The notes under the pieces were generated by a model that was given only the letters and a program-made list of their open reading frames with translations, did not search any database and was not told the DNA's origin. From assembly GCA_044345405.1 (NCBI GenBank), contig JBIJBE010000002.1:107600-171599 (forward strand): a DNA stretch of 64,000 bases, written 5' to 3'. Shown piece after piece: positions 1 to 22,754 of this stretch. Every line of letters starts with the position of its first letter. The first letter of the stretch is position 1. Made by a program: the position numbers and the translations under genes. This DNA comes from Bdellovibrionota bacterium. Lineage in GTDB: Bacteria > Bdellovibrionota_C > UBA2361 > OMII01.

Positions 1-2
1 TT

Positions 3-584: not shown

Positions 585-823
585 TAGGCCTCCTTGATTT
601 CGTACTGCTCGATAACTGGGTTAGCGAGGAGGAGCTTACATACCTCTTCAACTTGGGCGCGAGCCTCAGTCGCTGAAACCCCATCAACATCGAGCTCGAT
701 CACACGACCGACCCGAATGTTTTTGAAGGCGTTAAATTTCTTGTCTTTGAGTCCGGTCTCTATCGCCTTCCCCTGAACATCGAGAACGCCACCTTTGAGT
801 CGAACGAGCACCTGAAATCGCAT
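584..823 (-). CDS. purS: FGAM synthase subunit PurS
   Basis: 79 aa, LKGGVLDVQG...LLANPVIEQY motifs; between purB and purQ. Confidence 0.95.
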   Translation of the reverse strand: MRFQVLVRLKGGVLDVQGKAIETGLKDKKFNAFKNIRVGRVIELDVDGVSATEARAQVEEVCKLLLANPVIEQYEIKEA

Positions 824-844
824 AGCACCATCTCCCTTCGTATC

Positions 845-2940: not shown

Positions 2941-2983
2941 CCCTGGACTAAACCAAATTCAACTCAGGTAAACAAGGTTGTAG

Positions 2984-4117: not shown

Positions 4118-4309
4118 AAAACTCTCCTAGTTTTCCGTATGATTTCGGCTCATTTGATAGCTTTTTACAACGCCGAACAGTCCCCCAAGTATACCCAAAA
4201 ACACCCCCTCAAGCGAACCTGAAACTAGCTAAGTGAGGGTTATCTTTTACATTGATTCTAAGTATTTAGCCGATTGACGGCCGATACGGTGTTCTCTAAT
4301 CTGCTAACT

Positions 4310-5914: not shown

Positions 5915-5924
5915 GTAACGCCTC

Positions 5925-7943
5925 ATGGCTGATACGCGGGCAATCACTAGGGTCCTGATCGCAAATCGCGGCGAGATCGCGCGAAGGATCGTTCGCACCT
6001 GCACTCGTCTTGGAATCGAGACCGTCGCGGTGTACACCGATGTCGACGCTCATGCGCCGCATGTTCGTGAAGCGACCTTTTCTGAAGCTCTCGGCACACC
6101 AGAGTCATACCTCTCGATTGAGAAGATCCTCGAAGCAGCGAAGCGCTCCAAGGCCGATAGCGTCCACCCCGGTTACGGCTTCCTCTCCGAGAACCCCGAC
6201 TTCGCCGCCGCCGTGCGAGACACCGGACTCACCTGGATCGGCCCTACAAGCGAAACAATCCGGAAGCTCGGAAGCAAGACCGCGGCGAAAGAGTTGGCTC
6301 GCCAGGCAAACGCCCCAACATCTCCAACACTCATTCTCCCCCCTGGCTCCACCGCCGACCGCGCGAGCGCCATAGCGAAATTCGGCGAGTCCGTTGGGTT
6401 CCCACTAATCTTAAAAGCGGCAGCGGGAGGTGGAGGTCGCGGCATGCGCTTCATCAATCCCGAGAGCGACATCGCCATGGAGCTCGACAGCGCGCAGCGA
6501 GAATCGCTCAAAGCGTTCGGAAGCGATGAGGTCTTCGTTGAGAAGTGCATCACCCCCGCTCGGCACATCGAGGTGCAGATCGTAGGTGACACACACGGGA
6601 ACGTGGTGGCACTGGGGACTCGCGATTGCTCGCTGCAACGAAGTAATCAAAAGATCATCGAGGAGGCACCGGCCGTACATCTCGCACCGGGAAGCGAAGC
6701 GAAACTCCTTGAGGCGGCGACGAACCTCGCTCGCGCGGCCGGATACACAAGCCTCGGCACCGTTGAGTTCCTCTACGGGCAAGATGGGTCACCCTATTTT
6801 CTTGAGGTAAACACACGACTTCAGGTTGAGCATCCCGTCACAGAACTCGTCACTGGGCTCGACCTCGTGGAGCTTCAGCTCCGCATCGCAGCCGGCGAGA
6901 CCCTCGCGGCGTGCGGCGTCACCCACACACCGGAACCACAGGGGCACGCCATCGAGGCGCGATGGTGCGCTGAGGAGTTCACCGACCGATTCACCACAGC
7001 GACCGGCATCGTGCTCGATATCGAGGTACCGCAGCCAGCGGCCCGCGGCACGATGGTGCGTGTCGATAGGGGCGTTGAGCCGTGCTCGGAGGTTACCCAC
7101 TACTACGATTCACTCATCGGGAAAGTTATTGTCTACGCCCCCTCACGAGATCGCGCGATTGAGGCGCTCGATGACGTGCTCTCACGTTCCCGACTCAGTG
7201 GCGTTCGAAACAATCGCAACCTCCTCTTGCATCTCCTTCGAACGCCAGAGTTTAAGGCGCTTCAGCACACCGTACAGGGAACGAAGCTCCTGCTCCCTTC
7301 AAGTGAGCAAAACTCAGCGATCGTTCGTGAGGCGCACGTTATCGCGGCGGCGGTTCGATGCGCGACACCAAACTCCGCGTGGGCGTCGCAGGGACCATGG
7401 TCCTCGACGACAGCGCCCGATGCACACATCTCCTATCCATGGACAACGAGCGAGCACGGGAACGCTCTCTCAAGCACAACGAGACAAGACGGAAATTCAT
7501 TCGTCGTGTCGGTAGACGGGCATTCCGAAACCATTACTTTCACGGAAGGGCCATTCCTGAACGGACTCGGCACCACAGCGACCCTTTCTCTCAACGGAGG
7601 AGCACCAAGCTCCGTATCGCTCTACCGCGACGGAAATGACCTCTGGGTTCATTCGAACCGAGGAACGGTCGTGCTCCACCAACCAGCGATCGGCGAACGC
7701 TCAGGCGGTGCCGGTAGTAGCTCAGCAAACGAGATCCGCTCAACGATCCCCGGTAAGGTCGCCGCGGTTCTCGTCAAAGAGGGAGATACCGTCGAGCAAG
7801 GAGCTACCCTGCTCGTGCTTGACTCTATGAAGATGGAGCATCCGATTCGCGCGACGATGAATGGAAAGGTGGCAAGCTTGCCGCTGCAGGTCGGCACGAT
7901 CGTACACGCGGGAGCCCTGCTCGTGTCGCTAGAACCACATTAA
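5925..7943 (+). CDS. liuD: Acyl-CoA carboxylase alpha subunit (biotin carboxylase + biotin carrier)
   Basis: LIANRGEIA, HPGYGFLSEN, EVNTRLQVEHPVTE, biotinylation motif SMKME. Confidence 0.88.
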   Translation: MADTRAITRVLIANRGEIARRIVRTCTRLGIETVAVYTDVDAHAPHVREATFSEALGTPESYLSIEKILEAAKRSKADSVHPGYGFLSENPDFAAAVRDTGLTWIGPTSETIRKLGSKTAAKELARQANAPTSPTLILPPGSTADRASAIAKFGESVGFPLILKAAAGGGGRGMRFINPESDIAMELDSAQRESLKAFGSDEVFVEKCITPARHIEVQIVGDTHGNVVALGTRDCSLQRSNQKIIEEAPAVHLAPGSEAKLLEAATNLARAAGYTSLGTVEFLYGQDGSPYFLEVNTRLQVEHPVTELVTGLDLVELQLRIAAGETLAACGVTHTPEPQGHAIEARWCAEEFTDRFTTATGIVLDIEVPQPAARGTMVRVDRGVEPCSEVTHYYDSLIGKVIVYAPSRDRAIEALDDVLSRSRLSGVRNNRNLLLHLLRTPEFKALQHTVQGTKLLLPSSEQNSAIVREAHVIAAAVRCATPNSAWASQGPWSSTTAPDAHISYPWTTSEHGNALSSTTRQDGNSFVVSVDGHSETITFTEGPFLNGLGTTATLSLNGGAPSSVSLYRDGNDLWVHSNRGTVVLHQPAIGERSGGAGSSSANEIRSTIPGKVAAVLVKEGDTVEQGATLLVLDSMKMEHPIRATMNGKVASLPLQVGTIVHAGALLVSLEPH

Positions 7944-7964
7944 ACAACCTATGAATTGATAATT

Positions 7965-8610
7965 ATGAAGCTCGGAACAATCAGCATTGTACTCGTGCTC
8001 CCGGCTCTACTTGGTGCGCTTGCGTGGCATTCTTATGTTCTATTTCTCTATCGGGTTGCCTATCGGTTGGCTTGGGTTGAAGAGAATCTTATCCTCTCGG
8101 GAATCCTCGGTTGTACCTATCTCTTCCTAGGCCTCTGCGCCCTTGCACTCACGAGCTATTACGCGGTCCGCACAGCATCTAAGTGGCTAATCGTGAAGAT
8201 GGGGCTGTCAGCACTACTCACACTATGCTCGGTCGCATCGTTTTTTGTAGGCGCGTACCTTGGCGAGCTCTGGGCCGTTACTGGCGCCAAATCATATTTG
8301 GACGGCGTTGTTCGCTCCGCTAATGACTATCTGCAAAAAAAATGGGGAATATCCCGAGTCCTTAGATAAGCTCGACCTCCCTGCGATGCCGCGCTTAATA
8401 ATGGAATCAGCAGACAGCAACAAAAAGCAAGAGCACAAGTCTTTCACTGTGCCGTACCAACGAATTGATGGTCGATCAATCATAGTGGGCTTCGAATACA
8501 GGAAGGGTTTCAGCAACGACGACTGCGCAAGTTATAAATGGACCACAAATAACCCGAGGTGGGTGTGCACATGCCACGGCTGTCTTACCGACAATCCGAA
8601 TCGACGATAA
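7965..8610 (+). pseudogene. Membrane protein split by a frameshift in an A8 run (8335-8342)
   Basis: ORFs 7956..8369 and 8260..8610 join if one A is removed, giving ...ANDYLQKNGEYPESLDKL... Confidence 0.65.
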
Positions 8611-8677
8611 GCTCTCTGGCAATAACCCCATCCCGGGATCTGGATTCAGGTTGCCTCGATAAACCGCGGCAAGGCGA

Positions 8678-9046
8678 TCACTGGTAGATCGTTTCCTTCA
8701 GCCGCTTCAACAACATCAACATAAAGCCAGATGAACAGAGGTGAGGAAAGAAGCTTTGATTGAGCTTTTCAGCGTTGACTGCCACGGCAACAAGCTTAGT
8801 GACGGTCGCCGCATCTGCTGAAAGGATCTTCTCCGGAGACTGAAGAAAGGGCCTCAGCTCCTCAATCCAGCCCATCCAATCAACATCCTCGGAGCACAGA
8901 CCGCTCCCCTTAATGCACTCTTGCAGATCTCTCACCTGCGGAGAGTATTCACCGGTAGTGATATACACTGAATGTGCGTCACGTAATCCGTCAGTCTCAA
9001 GGAGTGGAATAAAATCGAATAATCGCGTCAACGCCGCCTCGTCCAT
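8678..9046 (-). CDS. Hypothetical protein, DUF6508-like
   Basis: Likely ATG at 9046 (MDEAALTRLF); DWMGW...ADAATVTKL...SGFMLMLLKRL pattern. Confidence 0.6.
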   Translation of the reverse strand: MDEAALTRLFDFIPLLETDGLRDAHSVYITTGEYSPQVRDLQECIKGSGLCSEDVDWMGWIEELRPFLQSPEKILSADAATVTKLVAVAVNAEKLNQSFFPHLCSSGFMLMLLKRLKETIYQ

Positions 9047-9140
9047 TTTCTCGGTATACCACACGAGAGCGTGTTCGACTATGACACAGAGAAGCCTTCC
9101 TTGCCCCTGAGCAGACCGCGGGCGACGTGAGAGGTGAAAA

Positions 9141-9321
9141 TCACCGAGCGTCGTTACAGAGGTCAGTAAGGAGCGATACAACGTTAGCGTTAAACTCGCG
9201 TTGATTCCGCAACGCTGGACCGAACACGGCGTTGATGACCGGTTGAAGCATCCGCTTACCGAACACGATAAACGGCCCAATGATCTTACGGTGCGAGGTC
9301 GGAGTCTGGGGCCGAACATCG
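9141..9321 (-). pseudogene. Displaced 3' end (59 codons + stop) of the hypothetical gene at 19303..19716
   Basis: Translates DVRPQTPTSHRKIIGPFIVFGKRMLQPVINAVFGPALRNQREFNANVVSLLTDLCNDAR*; 56/59 aa identical to the intact copy; no start. Confidence 0.9.
9265..9321. repeat. 57-bp exact direct repeat, left copy (att-like)
   Basis: ACGATAAACGGCCCAATGATCTTACGGTGCGAGGTCGGAGTCTGGGGCCGAACATCG identical to 19427..19483. Confidence 0.92.
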
Positions 9322-9574
9322 AAGGACCTCCCGCATCGCCTTTATAAGCGCACAGGAGGGAAGATCATCGAAGCGTAGAGTCGCTGATTCCAACCCCTGC
9401 CCCACAGCGCATACTCGGGATCTGCCGAGGAATTCTCAAAAGACACGCCTGCTGCGGCGGAGTCGATTTTTCGAACACTCCAAGAGGCTGGGAGGCGGTA
9501 CCCGATATACATACAGGAAGAATAAAGAAACCGCCGCCCTACTCATCCCTACCTCAGGGCTCATCCCTGGCGCA

Positions 9575-10576
9575 TCACCGCCGCGCAACGGCCCTCTCGA
9601 TTGGATAGAAGGAGAACGAGTATTCCTTTAAAACTGCAATCACCGCCCAGTCCCTAAGGACGTGCCCGAATGCCTCTTGCAGCGAATCGGTAAGCTCTCC
9701 TATCTGCTCGGGGCTCTCCACTTCACAACGCATGATATAGTCCCAGACACCGACGAGTCGCATCATACTCACAATCGAACGCTGCTGTTGGCACCATCGC
9801 AAGATACTCTTGTGCATCTCAGCAGAGAGTGTATTGCTTGCAATCTGAATTCGGTATACTTGCATGCCAAGGCGAGCCGGCGAGACGAGATACGGAAAAC
9901 CTGTTATAACCCCACTCTTAGTCAAAGCCTGTATTCGATAACCAATAGTAGACGAAGGGAGTCCGGTAGCGGAGCTTATATTTCTTAGCGATTCCGCGCC
10001 GCGACCACCTAATACTCGCAATATAGCGTGGTCGACCTCGTCGATGCTGACGATCCCAGACCCCGGCAGCGCCTCAAATCTTCGGCTATGCTTCACGCCC
10101 TCCGGGGCGAGGTATTTCCTCCCGAACCACCAGTATCCGATCGAGAGGCACGAATCTCTCGTATCGAACATGCCCGGCGCGCGAGCGTCGAGCTCCTCTA
10201 GGCGCCGAGCCACGTCAAGCGTATTCATCGCCTCAATACCGATATGATAGTCATACTTACCGGCCGTGCGATAAAACCATCTGATCCCGGGGGATTCCGT
10301 CACAGCCTGGGTAAGTCTTGCGCTGAGACTCTTTTTATCCTTCGCTGGAGAGAAGAAAACCTCAAGCTCGGTCGCCCCGAGCCGGTAGGTGTCGACAAAG
10401 ACAGCCTGCGAGACAAGCCCCTCCTTGGCCCAACGGCTCATCTTCCCCTGGAGAGCGCTCTCTTTTATCCCTAGAGATTTTGCGAGCGAGCTCAACGGCT
10501 CGTTACCATGGAACTGAAGCGAGTACAGCAGGAACTTGTCTACATCTGAAATTTTTTGAATTTGTTGTCTTTTCAA
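9575..10576 (-). CDS. Tandem (double) Lrp/AsnC-family transcriptional regulator
   Basis: Two HTH+RAM repeats (LSSLAKSLGI...AGKYDY; LRNISSATGLPSSTIGYRI...VGVWDY). Confidence 0.85.
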   Translation of the reverse strand: MKRQQIQKISDVDKFLLYSLQFHGNEPLSSLAKSLGIKESALQGKMSRWAKEGLVSQAVFVDTYRLGATELEVFFSPAKDKKSLSARLTQAVTESPGIRWFYRTAGKYDYHIGIEAMNTLDVARRLEELDARAPGMFDTRDSCLSIGYWWFGRKYLAPEGVKHSRRFEALPGSGIVSIDEVDHAILRVLGGRGAESLRNISSATGLPSSTIGYRIQALTKSGVITGFPYLVSPARLGMQVYRIQIASNTLSAEMHKSILRWCQQQRSIVSMMRLVGVWDYIMRCEVESPEQIGELTDSLQEAFGHVLRDWAVIAVLKEYSFSFYPIERAVARR

Positions 10577-10691
10577 TCGACTCTCTACTTACAAAAGACG
10601 TCAATAACTAGCGCTCTAAACTAAAAACCGAAGCCCGACAAGAATAAAGGATGCCAGAGGATTTGTTATAAAACCGATACGAGAGAGAAGA

Positions 10692-10721
10692 AGGGAAGTG
10701 AACCCCATGGCTCACTTCCCT
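10692..10721 (-). terminator. Hairpin terminator downstream of csrA
   Basis: AGGGAAGTGA/TCACTTCCCT inverted repeat followed by pyrimidine run on minus strand. Confidence 0.55.
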
Positions 10722-10726
10722 GCTGG

Positions 10727-10894
10727 CTACCGTCCTGCGTCAGGGCGCGTTCTGGTCTCCTGCCTGAAAACTGGAACATTCCTTGGCGCTTCGATTCCAA
10801 GTTTAACCCTTCCGCGTTCAATTTCTAACACGGTAATTTTGATGGAATCACCAATGACTATTACCTGATCACTACGCCGCGCAAGAACCAACAT
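10727..10894 (-). CDS. csrA: Carbon storage regulator CsrA/RsmA
   Basis: MLVLARRSDQVIVIGDSIKITVLEIERGRVKLGIEAPRNVPVFRQE; GGGAG SD upstream. Confidence 0.92.
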   Translation of the reverse strand: MLVLARRSDQVIVIGDSIKITVLEIERGRVKLGIEAPRNVPVFRQETRTRPDAGR

Positions 10895-10899
10895 TAGAC

Positions 10900-11055
10900 T
10901 ATTCTCCCAAAAAAACTTCAAAGGCCCTCTGAGAAACCGTCGTCCCTCCTCTGGCATAAGAGTCAGAGCGACATACCGTTAGAGATAGAGAAAGTACAAC
11001 CGTCAGTCAAACGACATGAACGGTGACCAACAATCGGCTCGAATATTGGACAAAT
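10900..11055 (-). promoter_or_regulatory. csrA promoter/leader repeat, copy 1
   Basis: TTGACT-17-TATCTC, then CTCTTATGCCAGAGGAGGGACGACGGTTTCTCAGAGGG; homologous to copies at ~14.7 and ~18.7 kb. Confidence 0.7.
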
Positions 11056-11118
11056 ACAGAGGCCTCGCCAACGAATATCTCAGGAGAGTGCGTAGCGAGA
11101 ATAAACGTAAATCAGACA

Positions 11119-13359
11119 TCACTCAATTCTCTCCGCCACCCAGTTGTACTCAAACACGCCACTCCGAGAACTAGATGAGCCGGTGACAACGGTTTTTCCA
11201 GACAGCGCAGAGCCGTCCGCGGACAGAACTGCAGAGCTACTCAGAGTGGCTCCGTTGATGGACTTCGCAAGCAAGTTTACGTCAAAGCCGTGTTCCCGAG
11301 GCGTAACCGAGACCGATTCAAAGTGAGTAAAGAGAACCTCGCCGCTCAACCCCGATATACCCGTTACGCCAACCAGAGTGATAGAAGAGCCAATGAATCC
11401 TCTTTGGCTCTCGTCGAATATGAAATAACCCTCCCCCTCGGCGGGCGCCGTAAGGGACCATTTCCAAACCCCGGCCAAGTGAGAAGGAGTTGATGCGGAA
11501 TTGGACTTGCCGGCTGATAGCGGAGGATTCTGCTGCGGACCGGCGTCGACACGCGGAGTATCTGCTTGCTCCATCAACGGCTGGAGTGGTTCTGCCACAG
11601 TATTCTCGAGCCAGTCGACTGAGCTGTAGGTTCTTAACTGACCGTCCACTAATCGCTCAAACCCTTTCGTCGCTACCAGCGCCCCCGGTTCGGTCTTATC
11701 CGCAATGTAAAACAGGGCGGTGACTGAAACATCAGAGAGTCGCCGCACCTCGCCTTCTTGCGACACGCCATCTCTATTCGCGTCGAACCACAGGCCCAAT
11801 TTGTCGAGTTCGATGCCGTCTATCTTTCCATTTCTATCAGTGTCCATGGTCGCGAGCGCTTCGTACCCATCTTTCCACGGAATGGCGGTGTGTTGGTTGT
11901 CCGAAGCGGGCTGCTTTCCGCCGAAGGTCCAACTGCCGAATAGCTGTTCGGCCGAGGTGATTGAACCGGTGTGTTCAGCGTCAAAAACAAGGACAGGGAG
12001 AGACGCTGAACCTCTCCACAACCACGTATCCTGCTTCGAGTGAGGGTTAAGCTTGAATGACACCATCGTGCTCGGAAGCAGAGAGTAGTCACCAGCCCAT
12101 ACCAGGGAGATCGGCGTAGCCATTTCAGCGTAGTAAGAGATAGATCCGCACGACATTTTGTCGGGCGTGATCGTCGAGACTGGAATCAGCTTGCAATTTT
12201 GATCAATGTAGAGAGAGCCCGCCTTACACCCCGGCTCTTTGTCCTCTTTCGAGCCTCCCCCGATCTGTGCCTCACCTGCATGACCCAGGGAGTTCGCGGC
12301 ACCGTAACCTCCGAGGCAGTTGATGTACTGTTTATTTTGCTCGTAACTGTCTCTTGTCCGCTCGTTCTTCTCGAGAAGGTGTATCCAGAGGTAGCTGGTA
12401 AAGCACGTGGCGTACTTCTCCATCATTTCCTTGCCGGCCAGATCTACGCCCTTGGCCTGGGTGTATCCGAAATCTTGGTTATGACAGGTCTCGAACGCTT
12501 TTCTAGCAACGTCTTCGAAACACTGCAATGATTGCGCGCCCTCACTTGGTGATATCTTCAGATCTCCCAACTTGTGCGTGCTTCCGTGCTTGAAATTAAG
12601 TCCGTAGTAGCTGCAACTAGGGGTTGGAGTAGCCGTGCTTGTCGCCGTCGCCGTTCGAGTGGGTGTGAGCGTCGGAGTCCGGGTAGGAGTTCTCGTAGGC
12701 GTCGCCGTTCGAGTGGGCGTAAGCGTCGGAGTCCGGGTAGGAGTTCTCGTAGGCGTCGCCGTTCGAGTGGGTGTAAGCGTCGGAGTCCGGGTAGGAGTTC
12801 TCGTAGGCGTCGCTGTTCGAGTGGGTGTAAGCGTCGGAGTCCGGGTAGGAGTTCTCGTAGGCGTCGCTGTTCTAGTTGGGGTAGGCGTCGAGGTTGGTGT
12901 TTTCGTCCCCGAGCATCCGACTCTTCGGAGGTAGTTCAAGATGACTGCAGAATCGAGGGGCGTTACACTGCCATCCCGGTTTACGTCTAAAGCTCTCGAA
13001 CTTTCACTAACGGGGCCTGGCCCCTTCTTGATGAGAAACAGGTCGATCGCTTGAGCGTCCGTTTCATTAACCACGCAATCCTGATTGACATCATAGGTTG
13101 ATAAGACTCTGTCGCCGTTACAATCCAGCGGCGCGCAAGGCTTCGCTGTCGCCGAGCGGGTAGGAGTTGGGTCGAGCCGTGAGGGCGCATCCTCTGGGCT
13201 GCGAACGACCGGCGAGGCGTTACAAACCCAAGTCACGGGGTATGATACGGCCAAAAGACACGCGATCCCTAGGGCGCACAGGCGACTGCTGCAATAAAGA
13301 ACAACATTGGCGACCGCACCGATTAAGCCTTCAGCGAAGTCGTTCAGCTTGATCACCAT
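11119..13359 (-). CDS. Large secreted protein: dockerin/EF-hand-like pair, Thr-Pro linker, Cys-rich domain, Ca-binding (PLVLDLDG-type) domain
   Basis: N-terminal hydrophobic segment; [21 protein letters not shown]; TPISLVW...QLFG...DGYEAL...DTDRNGKID...[16 protein letters not shown]. Confidence 0.8.
12647..12872. repeat. Coding tandem repeat, 54 bp x ~4.2 ([18 protein letters not shown])
   Basis: Units start at 12647, 12701, 12755, 12809, 12863. Confidence 0.9.
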
Positions 13360-14576
13360 CCCCTATTCTCCTCTAAGGCGTATAGCAGCCAAGGATCCCT
13401 CGTGCACCTCCCTAAACATCACGGAAGAAGAATGCAAAAAACTTCCGAAAACCATCCGCGACCAGAGGGAACGGCAAATGCCGGGCGGTGGCCACGGCAC
13501 CACAAAATACGCGAGTCGGCTCGCCCTCCCGATGCTAGCCATACCATACTAACTGTTGGGGGCTGTCGTCCGTTCTCGGACGAAACTTTACGTTTACAGC
13601 CAGTTTTGAGAAAGACCAAAAAATAGGAAGATTTCGGGTGCAAGAATGGGTAATGCGAAGGCACCGAACACATGGTCACCTTGTTTCAGCACCATACATC
13701 CTCAGGGAACCTTGCCTGCGGACTACGTTCATACCAGTGAGAGTAGCGGGCTTCCTTACCCAGGTTTCTCAGGGCTTTGAGAACGATCCCAGTGGGCAAG
13801 GTCATGCTGGAGGGGATTCCGAACGACTTTGCCCTTTACCGCGGTCAAACTAGCGGCGGCGGTCGCTTCTTGTGAGGGAAGGTATTTAAAGAGCTGTGGA
13901 TTAAGGGCGGTGCGTTAGCACTAGGTATTTGATCAGTCCGCCTGGTGTTCATGCGCCGGAAACACGAAAGCCCTCAGTGATTGTGGAGTTCAGACCGGAG
14001 CGGTCTTGAATGGACTGCCGGTCTCTGACGTGAAAGCGCTAACTGAACTGTCAGTTAACTGTTAATGCGCGTCACTTCCTTGGCTGGTAGAGCTGGGTTC
14101 GTCAGCCGCTGCCTCGCACCAGAAAACTGACCTTGCCATCAAAAGAGCCCCTTACCAGTTTGCCCAGGGCCGGCAATGCCCCTCAAAGATCCCGGTGTCG
14201 GCGCTGATCGGGTTTGTGGCTCTCGACGGAACGCTTTCCGCCAAACTGGAGGAGGGGGTGACGGTATACTGCGATGTCCTTGAGGAACTCAGAAACCATA
14301 CTCGCCGCACTAACGCGAACCTCAGTGTCTATTCTTGTTGGACATCCAAGTGAGCGCTGCGCAACTAACGCGGTACAAAATGAATCAAACTCCGAAAGCC
14401 ATTTGGAGGCAGATACTTCCGCTAATAACAAGGGGTCGAGCACCGAAAGTTCGATTGCAACGAACGACTGCTGGCACTCCTTGACAAGACTGGCCTGCGA
14501 CAAACCCGACACTCCATCGTCTTGCGTTATCAATCACGGCGAACACTCGGATAGCTCTGCCGTCGATGTTCCGGTG

Positions 14577-14702
14577 CTATTTTTTGGGGGCAGCAGAACA
14601 GGCGCCTCCGATCTTCAACACAAACCGCTCACTTCTTATTAAATCAGCTATCAGGATTACGTCGCCAGCTTTTCGGTTCAGACCTAATAGTCCTATTTTC
14701 AT
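14577..14702 (-). pseudogene. Degenerate csrA copy 2
   Basis: LLGLNRKAGDVILIADLI...VLKIGG...APKK* resembles CsrA and sits behind the same leader. Confidence 0.6.
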
Positions 14703-14852
14703 CCTCACAAACACTCGAAAACCCTCTGAGAACCGTAATCCCTCCTCTTGCATAAGAGTCAGACCGACACACAACTTGGAGCTAGAGAAACCCAAGATCT
14801 CTCGCAAACTACGTAAAGTGCATACAACTAATAGCCCGAACATCGGTCAAAC
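14700..14852 (-). promoter_or_regulatory. csrA promoter/leader repeat, copy 2
   Basis: TTGCGA-17-TAGCTC; TCTGACTCTTATGCAAGAGGAGGGATTACGGTTCTCAGAGGG. Confidence 0.7.
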
Positions 14853-14914
14853 GTGAGTCAGGACCAAACCCGAGCGGAACTCCCAGGAGCACCCCCCTCA
14901 GTTTGACAGGGGCA

Positions 14915-17900
14915 CTAAGAACACTGACTGTTAAAGCGAGGAAGCTGCGTTGATACCTCCAGAGTTCGATTATACAAGGTTGTTCCCGTGGCAGCACGGG
15001 CCGCATCGCTTGAACTAAGGCTACGGCGCCGTGCTTTCTTAAGTGTCGACGCCGCTCGCTTCGTGAGGCGGTGAAGCTGCTTCGCGCGACCGGTTATCTC
15101 AGTGATATTTGATGAAGTCTGAATGGCCGCGCATCCAACGCATGATTTAGTCACCAGCGGGAAGCTCGACCATATGCTTTTCCATTGCGCAAGGTAGAGG
15201 TCCTGGGCCTCCTCCTCGTATGAAGCAGCGAGGTCCAAAAAGGTTGACGCGTTCGATACGCGTCTGATGCGACTCGCTAAATAGCGCACGGCAGACCGCT
15301 GTCGCGAGGCGAGATTATCGAGCTGTGACAACGTATCTTTGTTGTCGGCTTCGTTACACGAGATCTCTTCAACGGTACATCGCTGAGTCTGCGCCGAGGC
15401 CTCGACGGCGGCACTACCTAATGTCCACGTGATCACACTCGACGAGCTGGTGTTGTCACTTTCCGGAGTCGCGAAAGGGACAACCATCGTGAAGACATTA
15501 CTAAACGCGCCTCGAAAGAAGGTCGTCGGTTGACCCGGATTCGCCACGCCTGGATCCACGGAATTCCGCGGGCCATAAGGAATTGCAACAGAGGATAGTT
15601 CATCACTCCTGTAACCGAAGTGTGCTAACAGGCTCCCGTCTTGCAGGACATCCACACACTCGGCAATCGGTGTTACCTTGTATTGTGTGTCAGTTTGAGT
15701 CTCTGTTGCTGACGTTGTCGCCGTAGGCGTCGGTGTCTTTGTCAGCGCTATGACCTCGCATGTTGCCGACGGTGTCGCCGTGGGTGTCGGTGTCTTCGTC
15801 GGCATTATGACCTCGCATGTTGCTGAAGGTGTCGCCGTAGGTGTCGGTGTCTTTGTCGGCACCACCTCGTCGCACTCGACATTGTCTTTTGGTGAGGAAC
15901 ATCCCGGATCCAATCCATCAATCAGACCATCTCTGTCGTCATCAACGCCGTTCTGACATTGAGAGGTGCCATCAGCCTCATTAGTATCTTGAGAACTTGA
16001 GCATCCTGGGTCAGCCAAATCGATAAGGCCGTCTCGATCATCGTCCGTACCGTTTTGGCACTGAGAGGTTCCGTCACCCTCATTATTGTCTTGAGGGCTT
16101 GAGCATCCTGGGTCAGCCAAATCGATAAGACCATCTCGATCATCGTCCGTACCGTTCTGACACTGAGCAACTGGCGATGCCTCGTCGCTATCATCAGGTC
16201 CACTACAAGCGAAGTCCTGCAGGTCGATCGCACCGTCTCTGTCGTTGTCCACACCATCCGAGCACTGACTCGCAATTTGGAAGCGATACGCGACCTTTGC
16301 GGCCTGCCACGGACCCTTCTGGCCACCTTGCCCGATTCCTCGTACGAACCACTGGTACTGCCCTCGCGGCAAAACCGTTGTTGGCGTGTAAGAAGTTGAC
16401 GTCAGGCTTGCCTGCCTAATGACCACCTGGCCGTTCGCGGGGGAGATTTGTCTAACCACGATCTCGTAAGTTTTTGCCCCGGCAGCGGCCTTCCAGCGAA
16501 AAGCTACTTCAGGAGCTGAAATTACTCCGTTCTGAGGAGGGAATACCTGCGTTGGTAAGCCGATAGGTTGCGCACGAGCCTCGTTGTTGAGGGTACGGTC
16601 GTATGTCGCACTGCTCGTGAGGTCACGCCAGCATCCGGGGTCGGACGCGTCCGTCACTCCGTCAGAATCGTTATCCGAGCCATCCTGACACTGTGAGGTG
16701 CCATCAGCCTCATTAGTATCTTGGGGACTTGAGCATCCTGGGTCAGCTATATCGACAAGGCCATCTCGATCATCGTCCGTACCGTTCTGACACTGAGCAA
16801 CTGGTGATGCCTCGTCATTATCATCAGCTCCACTACAAGAGAAGTCCTGCAGGTCGATTACACCGTCACCATCATTGTCTAATCCGTCCGAGCACTGGCT
16901 TGCAATTTGGAAGGTAAACGCGACATTTTCGGACTGCCAAGGACCTTTCTGGCCGGCTTGACGGACTGCTCGTACAAACCATTGGTACCTCCCCCGCGGC
17001 AAAGATACCAGTGGCTTGTAAAACGTCGAGGTTATGTTTGCCGTTCTTATGACCTCCTGGTTTGCTTGAGGAGAGACCTGTCTGACCGAGACCTCATAAG
17101 ATTGCGCTCTAGCAACAGCCTTCCAGCGGAAAGCTAATTCGGGCGCCGTAATCACAGCGTTCCGAGGTGGAAACACCTGGGTTGGTATCCCTAGTTCTGG
17201 TTGCGAGCGAGCTTCGTTGTTGAGGGTACGATCGTAGGTCGAGCTGTTCCCGACGTCACGCCAGCACCCAGGATCTGCCGCATCGACCACTCCGTCGAGG
17301 TCGTTATCTGAGCCATCCTGACACTGAGAGGTTAGTAGACCTTCGTCGTTTAGGTTGGGGTCATATGAGCTAGGGTTTTCAGGGTTAGCCCAGCATCCGG
17401 GGTCATATCGGTCAGACAGGCGATCCCCATCGTTATCGAGACCATCGTCGCATTCCGTCCCACCTGAGCACAGATACGAGAAGTAAGCGTTTACACATCC
17501 ATTATTAAAGCCAAGAACCGCCTGGCCGGTGGTGGGATCATACAAAGCTCCCTGGATGCTCGTGGAACTGCACTTAGAAGAGAACGTGTTAGTACCGGCG
17601 GCACACCTTCGATTTCTTCCGATAGTTTGACTTCCAGACGCTTGAGTTGATTTGAAAGAAGTTAGATGAGCGGTCGTCGCTGTTCCCGGCTGGGCGCATA
17701 TATATCCACATTCCGAGATTCGGCCAGCTCCGCTTTGGGACGCGGTAATAACCCCATCCTCCCTGTTGTAGGAACATTCTACCGTTCCAGTACCGGCGCC
17801 GCCCTGTCTGACCTTTTGGAAATTTGCCACACTGACGACGCAAGTGAGACCAGCACCAATTGAAGTACCAGAGGAAACATATCCTGCCGTAAATTTTTGA

Positions 17901-18226
17901 CTTGCTCCTCGAGAATTATGGCACACATATACGCCCTTTCCGTCGGCGTATCGATTGCTGGCAATGGAGACACGGTTATTAGCAAGGCGTACCTGGAAGA
18001 ACGGCTCCTGATTCGCGGAGTTGTCGGATCGAACCCAAAGATAATTCCCCACAGAGGTAAAGCACTGGTCATAACCATCAGTGGACACGCTTTCTGTTGC
18101 CGAGATGTAGCCCATCTTAACGCCGCTATCCCGATATATCTCCTGGGCATTGATAACCGCCCCCCCAAGGAAGACTGACAAAAGTGAACAGAGCGTTGCG
18201 ATTCGAAGAGATAATCTTGTTTTCAT
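14915..18226 (-). CDS. Large secreted Cys/Asp-rich repeat protein (CxxGxDxDxDGxxDxxDPGC repeats, two FN3/Ig-like domains, PT linker)
   Basis: Signal peptide MKTRLSLRIATLCSLLSVFLGGAVINA; repeated QCQNGTDDDRDGLIDLADPGC; duplicated PTQVFPP...FRWKA...YQWFVR domain. Confidence 0.85.
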   Translation of the reverse strand: MKTRLSLRIATLCSLLSVFLGGAVINAQEIYRDSGVKMGYISATESVSTDGYDQCFTSVGNYLWVRSDNSANQEPFFQVRLANNRVSIASNRYADGKGVYVCHNSRGASQKFTAGYVSSGTSIGAGLTCVVSVANFQKVRQGGAGTGTVECSYNREDGVITASQSGAGRISECGYICAQPGTATTAHLTSFKSTQASGSQTIGRNRRCAAGTNTFSSKCSSTSIQGALYDPTTGQAVLGFNNGCVNAYFSYLCSGGTECDDGLDNDGDRLSDRYDPGCWANPENPSSYDPNLNDEGLLTSQCQDGSDNDLDGVVDAADPGCWRDVGNSSTYDRTLNNEARSQPELGIPTQVFPPRNAVITAPELAFRWKAVARAQSYEVSVRQVSPQANQEVIRTANITSTFYKPLVSLPRGRYQWFVRAVRQAGQKGPWQSENVAFTFQIASQCSDGLDNDGDGVIDLQDFSCSGADDNDEASPVAQCQNGTDDDRDGLVDIADPGCSSPQDTNEADGTSQCQDGSDNDSDGVTDASDPGCWRDLTSSATYDRTLNNEARAQPIGLPTQVFPPQNGVISAPEVAFRWKAAAGAKTYEIVVRQISPANGQVVIRQASLTSTSYTPTTVLPRGQYQWFVRGIGQGGQKGPWQAAKVAYRFQIASQCSDGVDNDRDGAIDLQDFACSGPDDSDEASPVAQCQNGTDDDRDGLIDLADPGCSSPQDNNEGDGTSQCQNGTDDDRDGLIDLADPGCSSSQDTNEADGTSQCQNGVDDDRDGLIDGLDPGCSSPKDNVECDEVVPTKTPTPTATPSATCEVIMPTKTPTPTATPSATCEVIALTKTPTPTATTSATETQTDTQYKVTPIAECVDVLQDGSLLAHFGYRSDELSSVAIPYGPRNSVDPGVANPGQPTTFFRGAFSNVFTMVVPFATPESDNTSSSSVITWTLGSAAVEASAQTQRCTVEEISCNEADNKDTLSQLDNLASRQRSAVRYLASRIRRVSNASTFLDLAASYEEEAQDLYLAQWKSIWSSFPLVTKSCVGCAAIQTSSNITEITGRAKQLHRLTKRAASTLKKARRRSLSSSDAARAATGTTLYNRTLEVSTQLPRFNSQCS

Positions 18227-18527
18227 GACGATATTTGGACCTTTGTAGTCATCCTTTGCCGAGTTTCACTGTTTAGTGGCACCAATCTTTCTTAAGAAGG
18301 TCGACAAGTCGTTAACCCGACCTTCCCACACACCTTCCGTAAAACCCGCCAATCCCTTCTCCGTTGTTCGGCACATCGACATATGAGGGGCTCCGGGCCC
18401 AGCTACACGCCGATTCCCTTGAGAGACGAAAGAACGAAGCATTCTGGAGGACCTGCTCAAACAACCTTTTTTTGAGACTCAAAGGGAACGCACACCCGTG
18501 CCCCCCGCTGCTAGCTGACGTCCCCAG

Positions 18528-18681
18528 TCAGAAGTCCTTTTCCCCCTGCCTGACCACGGGAACATTCCCTTGGGCTCTGGATGCCCAATTACATTCTGTC
18601 GCCCTTGACGTTTAAAACCGTAACTCCGACGCTTCAACGAACAAGAATTGCCTCATCATGTTTCCGGGCTATCGCCAATCT
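18528..18681 (-). pseudogene. Degenerate csrA copy 3 (frameshifts and in-frame stop)
   Basis: LAIARKHDEAILV / VGVTVLNVKGDRM*LGIQSPR / NVPVVRQG align to CsrA across frameshifts. Confidence 0.8.
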
Positions 18682-18689
18682 GTGCGCAC

Positions 18690-18843
18690 TCTTCTTAAAA
18701 ACGTCAAAAGCCCTCTGAGAAACCGTCGTCCCATCTCCGGCATAAGAGTTGAATCGACCTACAGAACGGAATTATAGAAAACAAAAATCTCTGTCAAACG
18801 ACGTAAGGTGTGACCAATTAACGGCACGGATCTTGGTCAAAAT
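18690..18843 (-). promoter_or_regulatory. csrA promoter/leader repeat, copy 3
   Basis: TTGACA-15-TATAAT (18797..18771); CTCTTATGCCGGAGATGGGACGACGGTTTCTCAGAGGGC. Confidence 0.7.
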
Positions 18844-18864
18844 AGTATTCCGCCCTCCCCACAG

Positions 18865-19302
18865 CGACTCGCGCATGAACAGTTGCGATTGGCTTCACAA
18901 ACTCAGTTTTTGGGTTCTATTTCGGTTACCATCACATCGTTACTCAGCAAGCACGAAACACTACCAACCCTTTTTCCCATCCACCGTGACGGATACGACC
19001 TCGGAATGCACTCCGAGCGAGGACCGGTAATTCTTAACAAAGCGACGACCGAGGAGCTCACGGGGGACGCGCAAGCGACACAGCGAACAAGATCCGATCC
19101 ACGCTCCCCGAGAAAGTTGCGGCGATGCTCGTTAATGCTGGAGATATCGTTGAACACTGCGCGATACTGCTCGTGCTCGACTCGATGAGGATGGAGTACC
19201 CGATTTGGACGTCGGTACGTGGGAAGATCTCGACTCGTTAAGCTTACACCTGGAACGGTCGTGCAAACGGGGTTGCCTCTTGAGGCAGTTGAACAGGAAT
19301 AA
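18865..19302 (+). pseudogene. Decayed duplicate of liuD 3' end (biotin carrier domain)
   Basis: HRDGYDLGMHSERGPVIL / ANKIRSTLPEKVAAMLVNAGDIVEHCAILLVLDSMRMEYPI / PGTVVQTGLPLEAVEQE* matches the LiuD C-terminus across two frameshifts. Confidence 0.85.
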
Positions 19303-19716
19303 TTACCGCGAGTCGTTACTCAGGTCGGTCAACAGCGACACCACATTAGCGTTAAACTCACGCTGATTACGGAGCGCAGGACCAAACACCGCGTTAATAA
19401 CCGGTTGAAGCATTCGCTTCCCGAGAACGATAAACGGCCCAATGATCTTACGGTGCGAGGTCGGAGTCTGGGGCCGAACATCGGCGGAATAGATCTGACA
19501 GAGCCGTCTGAGAAGCTCAACTCGCTCTGGCGTCGCGGTGAATCCATCTCGGGTCACTGAGAATGAGAGCTGTGCGATATGGCGCTCATCCGCCTCGCTG
19601 AACTTACCAGCGGCGCGCAGGTCGGCCACCCGTCGGGCGAGCGCATCGCGAACATCGGTGTTATTCTCCCCCGCGACGGAGAGCCAGTTTGACTGTGGTG
19701 ATGTAGGAGCTGCCAT
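19303..19716 (-). CDS. Hypothetical protein (island target gene; SHR..IG..IV..KR...QREFN motif)
   Basis: Likely ATG 19716 just downstream of the btuF-like gene; 3' end duplicated at 9141..9321. Confidence 0.75.
   Translation of the reverse strand: MAAPTSPQSNWLSVAGENNTDVRDALARRVADLRAAGKFSEADERHIAQLSFSVTRDGFTATPERVELLRRLCQIYSADVRPQTPTSHRKIIGPFIVLGKRMLQPVINAVFGPALRNQREFNANVVSLLTDLSNDSR
19427..19483. repeat. 57-bp exact direct repeat, right copy (att-like)
   Basis: Identical to 9265..9321. Confidence 0.92.
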
Positions 19717-19729
19717 AGCGGCGAGCGTA

Positions 19730-20659
19730 TCACAAGAACCGGTGGCGATGAAGCTCCACAAAACGGAGGCGGTGGAACTCCTCCCTTTTGGTGATATATC
19801 CGGCATCTAGCCCCGCCATCGCGGATACCAACATCCCGGCCCCCTCAAGCAAACCAGCCCCCGTTTGGTAGATCCGGATACCATCAGCGAACACCACTTC
19901 CCCCCGCTTTACCGCCGGTAAGGAGTCCCATTGGGGCGCATCCTCAAGCTTTCGAAGGTACCGGACGCTCTCTTCCAGCGTCTTCCCGCGCGGGGCAACC
20001 ATAATCGCGTCAGGGGCGAATGCCGCCAGCTCCTCCCATGTGGTCGGCTTGCTGATTTCGCGCTGCTCCGAATTCATTGTGCGGCCCGACACAAGTCGAA
20101 TAATATCAGGGATCCAACATCCCGCGATCTCCAAGGGCTCAACGCTTGAGAGCACAACCGTTTTCTTGTTTCGCAACCGCTCGTAGAGGTTCCGCCCCCA
20201 ATCAAGGAGCTGCGATTTTAGGCGCTGCGCTCGATCACGTCCGGTTGGCCCCATGCCGATAAGCGTTCCCAGATCACCGTAGGCATCAAGGAGATCGTTA
20301 AGGCTCGCGATATCAACGGACTTTACCCGAACGTTCTTCATCCAGTGGTGCTGGAAATATTCCTGCGCAAACCCGCAGAAGTCGTCGGGGTTATCAGAAA
20401 CGACCGTTGTAAGAATTACGGAGGGAGCGGCCTCTGTGAGCTTGTCGATATCGACCGGGATCGCTGAGAGGCCCGCCTGAAGCTTATCGCCCTCGACGCT
20501 ACCGGAGGGCTTGGGAGCTGAGGACCTGGTAACGACCGTTGGCGTATAGTCACTCGAGGGTGGCTGAGGGCAGAGGTGAGTCACGCCGAAGACCTTCCGC
20601 CCGTCGTGGAGAGCGTACAGTATCTCGGTAAGAAATGGGTTCAGGGAAACGATCTTCAT
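19730..20659 (-). CDS. ABC transporter substrate-binding protein, BtuF/cobalamin-Fe-siderophore type
   Basis: MKIVSLNPFLTEILYAL, GVTHLC, WDSLPAVKRGEV. Confidence 0.78.
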   Translation of the reverse strand: MKIVSLNPFLTEILYALHDGRKVFGVTHLCPQPPSSDYTPTVVTRSSAPKPSGSVEGDKLQAGLSAIPVDIDKLTEAAPSVILTTVVSDNPDDFCGFAQEYFQHHWMKNVRVKSVDIASLNDLLDAYGDLGTLIGMGPTGRDRAQRLKSQLLDWGRNLYERLRNKKTVVLSSVEPLEIAGCWIPDIIRLVSGRTMNSEQREISKPTTWEELAAFAPDAIMVAPRGKTLEESVRYLRKLEDAPQWDSLPAVKRGEVVFADGIRIYQTGAGLLEGAGMLVSAMAGLDAGYITKREEFHRLRFVELHRHRFL

Positions 20660-20948
20660 CAGCGCCTCGCGGGAAGGAACCTCTTCCACCTCTACCATCG
20701 GCCTAAGAGCTCGGTACCTTAAGAGGGCCCATCACCCGACCCGCAGGCGAGCCCAACCATCAACCCGACAAACCTCTGGAGAATTGGATTTACACAGGAA
20801 AATCCCACCCTCACCGCCACAACCACTCTACAACAGCGTTATTGCTCTTGACGGTCGGGCGACCGAGGGGACACTCTAATCACTGTAGTTTTGATTACGT
20901 ATGTGTCGCGGGAACCGTCTCGCCCCTCCTTTTACACTCGAAAGCACC

Positions 20949-21836
20949 ATGACCCCCTCGAACCGCCCCCTCCTCCGCTCCCGCCTTGCTCGAGGATTCG
21001 CCGTTGCGTTGCTCGTATGTTCGGTCACAACCCTTCTCGCCTGCGCCACCCGTAGCTCTAAGTTCTCCTCCCTTCTCAATCAAGGGATCATGCCGGTTAG
21101 TGAGGAGAACGCCTTCATGGGCGCTAACCTCTTCCTCGCTCGAGAGATGGAGCAGAGCGTATACCTTTACAACTTCATGAAGGAACGGGGCGCCCCGCAG
21201 GGAATCGAACTCAAGGGAGACAGCGAGGACGATGTAGAGGCGCATTTCTACTACACCTCAGGCCCGGAGGAGTACCTCGCCAAGCCAGCCCCTCGACCAC
21301 GATTCAATCGAAACAAAGATACACGCAGGGAGTGGATCATTATCGGACCGTTCGCGGTCGATAAGGAGCGGTATCGCGAGATTCAACAGCTAGATAAAAC
21401 TAATGGCGGCTCCTTTGAGATATTCGGTCGTCGGGAGTTCCTCGGACAGCAATCGAGCCCAGGCACACAGGTGGCTCTTCGTCCCGTATTCGTCCCGACT
21501 CCAATTCCTCCAAAGAAACACGTCGCGAAGAAGAAGCCGAGCGTTGATACCTCAGCCTCATCCACGATCAACTCCAAAGAGCCTGTAAACTTCGATCAAC
21601 AGGCGCTCAAAGAGGCGAAGGAGATGGCGCCACGGGATGGACAGGGTGACATCGTACACACCGTGACTTCCAAGACCGAAACCCTTCAGTCGATCTCGCA
21701 GTGGTACACCTCGAAATCCACGAGCGCCGCTGAGGTTGCCAAGAAGAACGGACTTCCTGAGGATGCAAAGCTTAGTCCTGGGGCGAAGGTTATCGTTCCG
21801 AAGAGCTTGATTACCAATCCGAAGCGGATGCAATAG
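20949..21836 (+). CDS. LysM-domain lipoprotein
   Basis: Lipobox LLAC; C-terminal HTV...ETLQSISQWY...NGL...LSPGAKVIVP. Confidence 0.8.
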   Translation: MTPSNRPLLRSRLARGFAVALLVCSVTTLLACATRSSKFSSLLNQGIMPVSEENAFMGANLFLAREMEQSVYLYNFMKERGAPQGIELKGDSEDDVEAHFYYTSGPEEYLAKPAPRPRFNRNKDTRREWIIIGPFAVDKERYREIQQLDKTNGGSFEIFGRREFLGQQSSPGTQVALRPVFVPTPIPPKKHVAKKKPSVDTSASSTINSKEPVNFDQQALKEAKEMAPRDGQGDIVHTVTSKTETLQSISQWYTSKSTSAAEVAKKNGLPEDAKLSPGAKVIVPKSLITNPKRMQ

Positions 21837-21886
21837 CACAGCGCAGCATTCGTTCTCTATACTGGAGAGCGCAGCCTCACAATCAA

Positions 21887-22426
21887 CTAGGTAAGCCGCC
21901 GCTCCACAAGCGGCGAAGAGAGGTCATGCCCATTACACTGCACATACAAAGTCCCATCGCTCCGAGAGATAGTCATCTCATTCCGTCTATCGAGGGTGCC
22001 AACGAGCGATGAGATAAAGCCGTCATCGAAGGAATAGAACGCGACCTCTTCGCCTCGAAAGATCGGAGCCTGCGTGAGCTGCTGATACACAACCTCCGCC
22101 GAACGGTGACAATACACAGCGACTCGCCGGGCTGCTTTCGCCGCGCGATGAATACGCTCGGCGCTCGGGGCGCCCACATCGATCCAGGCTGTGAAGGTTC
22201 CATCGAGCCCTTTGATAGCGATAGCGGGATCCTCAGTTGCCCCAATACCGGGAGAGAACGAGATCCCCTCCCCGTACTCAACACAGAACGCAACAACACG
22301 CGCCATCATGAACTCAAGGCTCTCTGAGGGGTGCAACGCGGTGGGGAGCTTAAAGCTCTCGTAGACACTCCGGTCGGTATCGGAGAGATCAATCGAGAAG
22401 TGGTACACGGTTGATTTAGGGGACAC
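21887..22426 (-). CDS. yaeQ: YaeQ family protein
   Basis: LSDTDRSVYE, ALHPSESLEFMMARV, WIDVGAP; likely GTG start 22426. Confidence 0.88.
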   Translation of the reverse strand: MSPKSTVYHFSIDLSDTDRSVYESFKLPTALHPSESLEFMMARVVAFCVEYGEGISFSPGIGATEDPAIAIKGLDGTFTAWIDVGAPSAERIHRAAKAARRVAVYCHRSAEVVYQQLTQAPIFRGEEVAFYSFDDGFISSLVGTLDRRNEMTISRSDGTLYVQCNGHDLSSPLVERRLT

Positions 22427-22668: not shown

Positions 22669-22754
22669 TGGTGCCCAGGAGAGGACTTGAACCTCTACGA
22701 CATTTCTGCCACCAGCCCCTTAAACTGGCGTGTCTACCATTCCACCACCTGGGC
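22669..22754 (-). tRNA. tRNA-Leu, anticodon AAG
   Basis: GCCCAGGTGGTGGAATGGTAGACACG-CCAGT TTAAGGG GCTGG-long variable arm-GGTTCAAGTCC...GGGCACCA. Confidence 0.92.

Follow-up and report, generated by a model that had tools for sequence, protein, structure and literature searches.

The Bdellovibrionota genome G000 (3.59 Mb in 85 contigs; a bin with 3.5% contamination) carries an island of about 10 kb inside the 3' end of a small conserved protein-coding gene, hereafter the target gene, which remains whole. The island lies in the 64,000-nucleotide (nt) stretch of DNA analysed here and called the window (C85:107600-171599 of that genome). The target gene is located 3' of a Peripla_BP_2-like gene (19730-20698) and faces a gene for a biotin-dependent carboxylase. 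Its last codons are present at both edges of the island, and the insertion amounts to 10,162 bp, the island plus one repeat copy. The features on which the argument depends are listed below in window coordinates.

5925..7943, plus strand: resident biotin-dependent acyl-CoA carboxylase, 672 amino acids (aa); open reading frame (ORF) that converges on the target gene and bounds the variable locus on the left
8678..9046, minus strand: DUF6508 gene (PF20118, E 5.6e-12); native left flank, contiguous with the single target gene in the relative G030
9141..9264, minus strand: native 3' end of the target gene, now orphaned; made up of 40 sense codons, a TGA stop and the final base of codon 19; frame intact, no start
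9265..9321: 57-bp block, left copy; meets island DNA at its right edge
9322..19302: unique island DNA, 9,981 bp; missing in G030 and skipped by a contig of lake-water run X20
18871..19302, plus strand: decayed carboxylase 3' fragment, about aa 532-672 (tblastn E 8e-18; two frameshifts and a stop; MKM changed to MRM)
19303..19426, minus strand: incoming 3' end that now completes the target gene (codon comparison and ortholog comparison)
19427..19483: 57-bp block, right copy (codon comparison)
19484..19716, minus strand: native 5' part of the target gene (ORF; 137 aa in the full gene)

The duplicated gene end and its empty sites

The target gene was present in 58 of the 61 genomes searched (G000 counted), and its last 60 aa were matched in 80 of 91 genomes of the order. 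Profile searches assigned the protein to no Pfam or NCBIfam family, and a look-up in Protein Atlas returned only clusters named "hypothetical protein". The closest sampled relative by this gene is G030, with 88% aa identity.

A single two-copy direct-repeat family was reported by the repeat search (9139-9326 and 19301-19488, 188 nt, 85% identity), in agreement with the pairwise alignment. On the minus strand, 9141-9321 and 19303-19483 both encode the last 59 codons of the target gene and its stop, so that the start-less duplicate proposed in a preliminary description of this DNA was recovered by repeat search, alignment and codon comparison alike. The identical run is exactly 57 bp long (9265-9321 = 19427-19483). 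Over the other 124 nt, stop included, the copies differ at 26 positions, which correspond to 19 synonymous codons, three non-synonymous ones (F/L, C/S and A/S) and a TGA/TAA stop; earlier hand counts of about 26 differences and three amino-acid changes were thus exact. The left copy lacks a start codon; immediately before the repeat the codons read F versus A, and homology stops there. With the right copy at its end, the ORF is intact and aligns from residue 1 to 137 with the orthologues, and the codon comparison bears out that an incoming 3' end, its changes mostly synonymous, keeps the gene whole.

Compared with relatives over 114 nt, the orphan left end is nearest to G030 (14 differences, versus 21 for the right copy), whereas the incoming end differs at 20-23 positions from each of G030, G020, G010 and the left copy. 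The orphan has an intact frame and no change at residues invariant among orthologues, in line with the earlier view that the displaced native end is undecayed.

The 57-bp sequence occurs exactly twice in the 3.59-Mb genome, with no third copy. At the difference rate of the rest of the tail, 19 identical codons in a row would be expected with P ~4.5e-7. Orthologues differ among themselves at 6-18 of the 57 nt, and the nearest allele found, on metagenome contig L052, differs from G000 at 3 of 56; the identity therefore reflects recent common descent of the two copies and not conservation. The block could be a crossover tract, a conversion tract or duplicated recipient sequence.

Empty sites were found in a relative and in a lake strain, confirming an insertion of about 10 kb within the 3' end of a protein gene. 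In G030, window positions 1-7934, 8674-9320 and 19298-22426 are contiguous, with one target copy beside the DUF6508 gene and no island, which is the arrangement that the preliminary description had suggested looking for. A 2,074-nt contig of run X20 (depth 7.05) matches 7839-9216, passes over 10,162 bp and resumes with 19379-20075. Compared with the window it has 36 differing letters on the left and 22 on the right, so that the empty-site strain diverges at roughly 3% of aligned letters. Since island sequence was present in 20 of the 23 listed lake-water runs (eight of these 20 being flagged as possible sources), strains with and without the island coexist.

The X20 contig switches from one copy to the other at 9216/19379, with five letters common to both at the joint, outside the 57-bp block. 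Provisionally, and provided that the split made by the alignment tool is optimal, this allele would combine the distal tail of the left copy with the proximal tail of the right one, by an exchange outside the block, which argues against a fixed core.

Origin of the island's right end and the variable junction

The right end of the island is foreign to this genome. Directly 3' of the incoming end lies the decayed carboxylase fragment, whose stop abuts that of the target gene. The fragment shows 59% identity over the biotinyl domain, with a second piece in another frame (tblastn), and Pfam recognised a Biotin_lipoyl remnant in it; the change from MKM to MRM is a loss of the biotinyl lysine. Carboxylase and target gene are convergent neighbours, from a few to ~50 nt apart, in G010, G015, G011 and G014, and the right end of the island is collinear with the arrangement in G010 (69% over 342 nt) and G015. 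The incoming end is contiguous with the decayed fragment just as in these abutting gene pairs, so that the right ~610 bp of the island is captured chromosome, taken from a related lineage with no DUF6508 gene between carboxylase and target. The idea that the replacement end is a dedicated attachment-site (attP) feature has to be given up for this one, in which it is part of captured chromosome that includes a carboxylase 3' pseudogene. The resident carboxylase is syntenic in G030 and the four genomes just named, at 73.5-84% nt identity. A donor search in 35 genomes of the genus found none closer than 83% to the incoming fragment; the donor lineage would thus be unsampled among these 35.

The two halves of the captured stretch have fared differently. 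At residues invariant among seven orthologues, 8 of 33 were changed in the carboxylase piece and 0 of 23 in the target end (Fisher P = 0.016); the incoming end has thus stayed under purifying selection while the neighbouring carboxylase fragment decayed. Two histories would produce this contrast: the end may long have served working target genes in successive hosts, or it may simply descend from a donor with an intact target gene and a carboxylase fragment that was already a remnant.

The junction between the two genes is variable across the sampled loci. Their stops are less than 10 nt apart in G010 and ~25-50 nt apart in G015, G011 and G014, the distance rising to ~0.15-0.5 kb in L054, L051 and G030, 3.3 kb in L052 and 11.4 kb in G000. 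Two of these loci hold orphan ends of their own. A Joint Genome Institute (JGI) metagenome contig has, between the two stops, a tandem orphan of the last 40 codons of the carboxylase (L054:905-1024; 45% identity, E 3e-7), and L052 has, about 0.9 kb downstream of the working gene, a decayed orphan of at least the last 16 codons of the target (L052:1390-1437; E 4e-4). Among 23 other loci scanned for a second match to the target tail, only L052 had one on the strand of the gene; a 13-aa match in L053, on the other strand, was attributed to chance. Orphaned ends from both genes, at differing breakpoints, are what recurrent homology-anchored insertion would be expected to leave, and not what would be expected of a site-specific enzyme, and the convergent junction is a probable recombination hot spot.

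Two further observations concern this junction in other records. The 3.3-kb variable region of L052 also holds a 146-aa secreted protein, a 205-aa membrane protein and a 458-aa ORF. In G020, contig C22 ends and contig C88 starts ~120-210 nt from the carboxylase/target junction; a 26-nt inverted match is all that these contig ends share, they give no sign of an island, and the pattern suggests an assembly-breaking structure at this locus.

Cargo of the island and the search for recombinases

None of the island ORFs encodes an integrase, transposase, phage or conjugation protein in the Pfam, PHROGs and NCBIfam searches, and a six-frame Pfam scan of the gene-poor stretches (13360-14913 and 18227-19302) detected no recombinase or remnant of one, so that the earlier statement that the island has no integrase is upheld. 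Genome-wide, G000 has three Phage_integrase matches and no resolvase match, with neither family matched within the island (C85:116921-126901). One of the three is an integron integrase at C49:17633-18682 (TIGR02249, 438 bits against a cut-off of 265). The other two are weak Xer-like genes, one of them on C85, at a distance of 22 kb from the left edge of the window; the housekeeping ORFs around it offer, by eye, no mobile-element context, no family search of those ORFs having been made. This completes the genome check for integrases and core copies that had been proposed: three Phage_integrase matches elsewhere, and the core present only twice. RecA, DprA and ComEC homologues were found in G000.

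The island as a unit was found in none of 60 relatives, only single cargo genes having homologues. Of 91 order genomes searched, 80 gave a tail match; an additional, orphaned tail is confined to G000 among these, none of the other 79 showing the duplication. There is thus no sign of a site-specific element family on three counts: no duplication in other genomes of the order, no third core copy and no mobile-element genes in the cargo.

The cargo and the remaining small genes of the locus are as follows.

7956..8610, plus strand: two overlapping small ORFs (137 and 116 aa) that jointly match one 205-aa membrane protein of contig L052
9575..10576, minus strand: cargo regulator, 333 aa, two Lrp/AsnC-type units (Pfam AsnC_trans_reg and HTH_AsnC-type)
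10727..10894, minus strand: intact csrA-like cargo gene, 55 aa (TIGR00202, 63 bits)
11119..13359, minus strand: cargo secreted or anchored protein, 746 aa, with dockerin, EF-hand-like motifs and a Pro/Thr tandem repeat (Dockerin_1, E 4e-11; repeat family D1)
14577..14772, minus strand: second copy of the D5 repeat, possible decayed csrA start (DNA similarity only, 71-84% to the other copies)
14915..18226, minus strand: cargo secreted repeat protein, 1,103 aa, with Asp-rich Cys-containing repeats and Ig-like domains (Pfam Ig_J, E 1e-8)
18562..18762, minus strand: third D5 copy (18697-18762) and decayed csrA (18562-18678; Pfam CsrA 28.6 bits, stops read as X)

The composition of the island is mildly atypical by both of the measures that had been suggested: G+C content is 53.3%, compared with a genome value of 55.3% (7th percentile among 594 windows), and the tetranucleotide distance lies at the 94th percentile. 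The D5 repeat (~145 nt, core 10911-10976) covers the leader and 5' end of the intact csrA-like gene; its three copies are all in the island and none is found elsewhere in the genome. The second copy gave no CsrA Pfam match in six frames, and the decayed csrA at the third scored 31.9 bits in the genome search, with one TGA and one TAA in frame. The island may thus be described as three csrA-led modules. An Rfam scan of 8500-20000 at E <= 1 gave no match, so that D5, as a csrA leader and 5' end, does not appear to be a known RNA family. Its nature as coding and leader sequence also led us to reject a reading of the modules as integron cassettes, and by eye the island junction lacks what we take to be the integron crossover motif.

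Homologues of the cargo are ordinary genes of G000 and its relatives: the 746-aa dockerin protein has one in G002 (72% aa identity), and the 1,103-aa protein has a paralogue on its own contig C44 and homologues in G010 and G002. The regulator has homologues of ~50% identity at four loci in lake metagenome-assembled genome records titled Deltaproteobacteria or Pseudomonadota, none of the four with target, carboxylase or csrA matches in its flanks, and a fifth, weaker match in genome contigs (25% identity). No relative of this Lrp-like protein was encoded by a viral contig in the viral-contig search. No toxin or immunity family was detected in the cargo with Pfam and PHROGs.

The two large cargo genes contain internal repeats at 12620-12889, 15704-15874 and 15898-17332 (a 54-nt Pro/Thr period, three 57-nt units and ~630-nt domain repeats), which coincide with breaks in public contigs. 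Contigs of X1 and X20 track the island up to 10890, or from 17422, and elsewhere consist of DNA absent from G000; the letters at these loose ends were not found in G000. They may come from an island variant whose middle differs, or from a separate locus that has in common with it the csrA/regulator end and the N-terminal portion of the 1,103-aa gene.

Left of the island, the ORFs at 7956..8610 are probably one frameshifted gene, judging from their joint match. Window positions 7935-8673 are missing from G030, runs X9 and X20 show a 1-nt deletion polymorphism at 8335, and contigs with loose ends occur at 8233 and 8291 in X1 and X9. To the right, a tRNA-Leu(aag) gene stands at 22669-22754, 3 kb from the island, with no insertion site there.

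Route of insertion and comparison with known systems

The reading that we prefer, with a probability of roughly 55%, is that 10,162 bp of DNA from a related lineage was inserted by host recombination anchored on homology in the target end, without a site-specific recombinase, whether encoded by the island or otherwise dedicated to it. The incoming DNA would have carried a stretch of donor chromosome, the carboxylase 3' end followed by the convergent target 3' end. Recombination within the target homology would then have joined the native 5' part to the incoming 3' end, giving a gene predicted to be functional, the cargo of three csrA-led modules with an Lrp-like regulator and two large secreted proteins would have come along, and the native 3' end would have been orphaned on the far side. 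Two routes, in which RecA would presumably take part, lead to this anatomy: a single crossover with a circular molecule (Campbell-type), or homologous recombination at one end and an illegitimate join at the other. Host recombination is favoured over an integrase acting on the 57-bp core by the origin of the replacement end in captured chromosome, the X20 joint outside the core, the orphans at other breakpoints and the lack of an element family. Of the Campbell-type crossover in the 57-bp core that had been put forward at the outset, the Campbell step is kept as a possible route, while its placement in the core is not supported by the X20 joint as provisionally located.

Laboratory integration of suicide vectors illustrates the Campbell-type route: a non-replicating circle with an internal or terminal piece of a gene, by a single crossover, duplicates the shared segment on both sides, and a fragment that includes the 3' end of a gene leaves one intact copy. 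The present case differs in being a natural event, in involving homology of 79% identity and in having a 57-bp tract that needs conversion or some other extra step.

In mechanism, the insertion would resemble the C-terminal displacement at Rhs, contact-dependent inhibition (CDI) and type VI secretion system (T6SS) effector loci, for which homology-facilitated illegitimate recombination is proposed and strings of orphans at a hot spot are described (PMC5361080). As in that account, a gene 5' part is followed by an incoming 3' end, cargo and the orphaned old end with a piece of the shared region; a homologous anchor would have brought in non-homologous DNA, and the incoming DNA resembles chromosome from a related locus, with no mobile element. 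The likeness would end there. At the Rhs, CDI and T6SS loci the new end is a different toxin domain accompanied by an immunity gene (PMC5361080), whereas here it encodes the same protein (three conservative changes), the target gene is small and conserved, and the cargo consists of regulators and secreted proteins.

Several points weigh against insertion by host recombination. Perfect identity over 57 bp beside 21% divergence resembles an att core, and the exact tract is not predicted by a plain single crossover. Campbell copies differ wherever donor and recipient differed, so that an exact tract ending at the homology boundary needs one of three added steps: heteroduplex mismatch correction, later conversion between the repeats, or duplication of recipient sequence at a non-homologous joining. 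The block also has an imperfect terminal inverted repeat, CGATnnnCGGCCC / GGGCCGnnnATCG (10 of 13 matching by eye; arms at 9266-9278 and 9309-9321, and again at 19428-19440 and 19471-19483). About 5e-4 of random genomic 57-mers reach 10/14 at their exact ends, the match in the block being offset by one base and its left boundary arbitrary. A helper element with an integrase could be unassembled, given the 85 contigs, or absent from this strain. RecA, DprA and ComEC occur almost everywhere (in 10-14 of 14 control genomes), and finding them here proves nothing. The L052 orphan is short, at 16 aa and E 4e-4. The position of the X20 joint is the split that a tool made of one contig, with 12 of the 22 right-side differences unlisted. 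Finally, no contig seen bridges the 57-bp block, and the integrated arrangement rests on the source assembly.

These points bear first on the idea that the island is a decayed integrative element, whose lost or borrowed integrase acted on the 57-bp core, with the gene end as an attP arm. We hold this to be unlikely, though it is the rival that survives best. The model for it is e14 in icd of Escherichia coli, where an element-borne 3' end with mostly synonymous changes keeps the gene whole, a start-less icdC pseudogene lies at the far side, and loss of the element leaves a chimeric icd gene; e14 is a prophage, and its excision is seemingly site-specific and SOS-induced (PMC13626634). The island shares with e14 and phage 21 in icd an insertion in the 3' part of a gene, a replacement 3' end that restores the ORF and a start-less orphan opposite, and with e14-type elements in general the direct repeats at both ends and an empty site in relatives. 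Unlike e14 as described there, it has no recombinase or phage genes, a further host gene fragment, now decayed, is joined to its incoming end, and the identical block is 57 bp; unlike e14-type elements, it has no related elements at the same site in other genomes (80 with a tail match; 60 relatives).

A second model, cis-mobilizable elements (CIMEs) in streptococci, is characterised by location at the 3' ends of fda, rpsI and rpmG, att-type direct repeats, no recombination or transfer genes and 1.2-13 kb of cargo; CIMEs derive from integrative and conjugative elements (ICEs) or integrative and mobilizable elements (IMEs), moving by accretion with one of these (PMC7563491). By that description the island is CIME-like in its flanking att-like repeats, its lack of recombination and transfer genes and its position at the 3' end of a protein gene, and differs in having no ICE or IME remnants, no tandem partner in the window flanks, no related element in 60 relatives and no second tail in other genomes of the order.

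Besides the replacement end of the e14/icd type (PMC13626634), a decayed element would account for direct repeats whose exact block ends precisely at the island junction and for the inverted repeat within it; the long-kept coding capacity of the incoming end fits repair of the target in successive hosts, and the occurrence of the island in 20 of 23 listed lake-water runs is also in its favour. It is opposed by the six-frame scans, which revealed no recombinase remnant in the gene-poor stretches, by the absence of ICE, IME or phage genes from cargo and non-coding parts, and by the lack of a helper candidate (only the integron integrase and the two Xer-like genes) or another core copy. The target gene shows no recurrence of the insertion in the other 79 tail-bearing genomes of the order, the empty-site joint lies outside the core, and orphan ends occur at other breakpoints of the locus. 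The 57 identical bases are themselves of little help to it: a precise site-specific exchange does not reset the attP flanks, so that identity where orthologues differ at 6-18 of 57 nt is explained no better by an integrase.

Somewhat less probable again, in our estimate, is that the island is a mobile unit without an integrase, which would use its captured gene end as portable homology through RecA-dependent crossovers at variable points in the 181-bp homology. The captured end would be kept by purifying selection, as it must complete the target gene at each insertion; the mosaic empty-site allele of X20 would be the scar of one cycle of entering and leaving, and the 57-bp tract would be host sequence acquired in an earlier cycle.

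An assembly artefact at the 57-bp repeat, in which an intact native gene and either a separate 10.16-kb circle or the locus of another strain were misjoined, appears improbable. Logan contigs of X1, X9 and X13 end inside the block, at 9294/9292 on the left and 19456/19454 on the right (9292-9294 and 19454-19456), as expected for k = 31 around a 57-bp repeat. Both arm pairings are then possible, and public contigs cannot separate the integrated arrangement from an empty site plus a circle; the genome is moreover a bin with the contamination given above. Against this, the 9321/9322 position joins the core to non-homologous DNA, and a simple strain chimera would not create such an att-like junction, so that the core-to-island junction must exist in some real molecule, integrated or not. 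The depths of island and flanks in X1 are alike (13.7, 12.1-14.2 and 12.2) and, like the source contig, speak for integration. A circle of 10 kb that lacks any replication gene would be unlikely to persist in 20 of 23 listed runs, ordinary-length reads span 57 bp, and a genuine X20 mosaic would mean that the incoming tail had been part of a chromosome. A 28-nt pattern across the left junction had no match in the JGI metagenome contigs, a set that may leave out records near the genome of the window.

A duplication of the carboxylase-end/target-end segment that took place in situ long ago, its copies then diverging and genes being gained between them, would explain why both halves of the right fragment have resident counterparts on the left, but it can be set aside as very improbable, being contradicted by the undecayed orphan, by the empty sites in G030 and in a strain only ~3% different, by the separation of the left copies by DUF6508 and other DNA where the right ones abut, and by the 57-bp identity.

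The case shows an island inside an intact gene without a recombinase of its own. Such insertions would escape island-detection programs that depend on an integrase or a tRNA target, and where exact repeats of ~57 bp occur, assemblies made with short k do not tell the integrated from the excised form. Here the decayed neighbouring fragment reveals the source of the replacement end, the flank of a previous host's chromosome. If insertion was by host recombination anchored on the target end, the range of C-terminal displacement, described until now at polymorphic toxin loci, would come to include an ordinary conserved gene of an uncultured lineage from fresh water.

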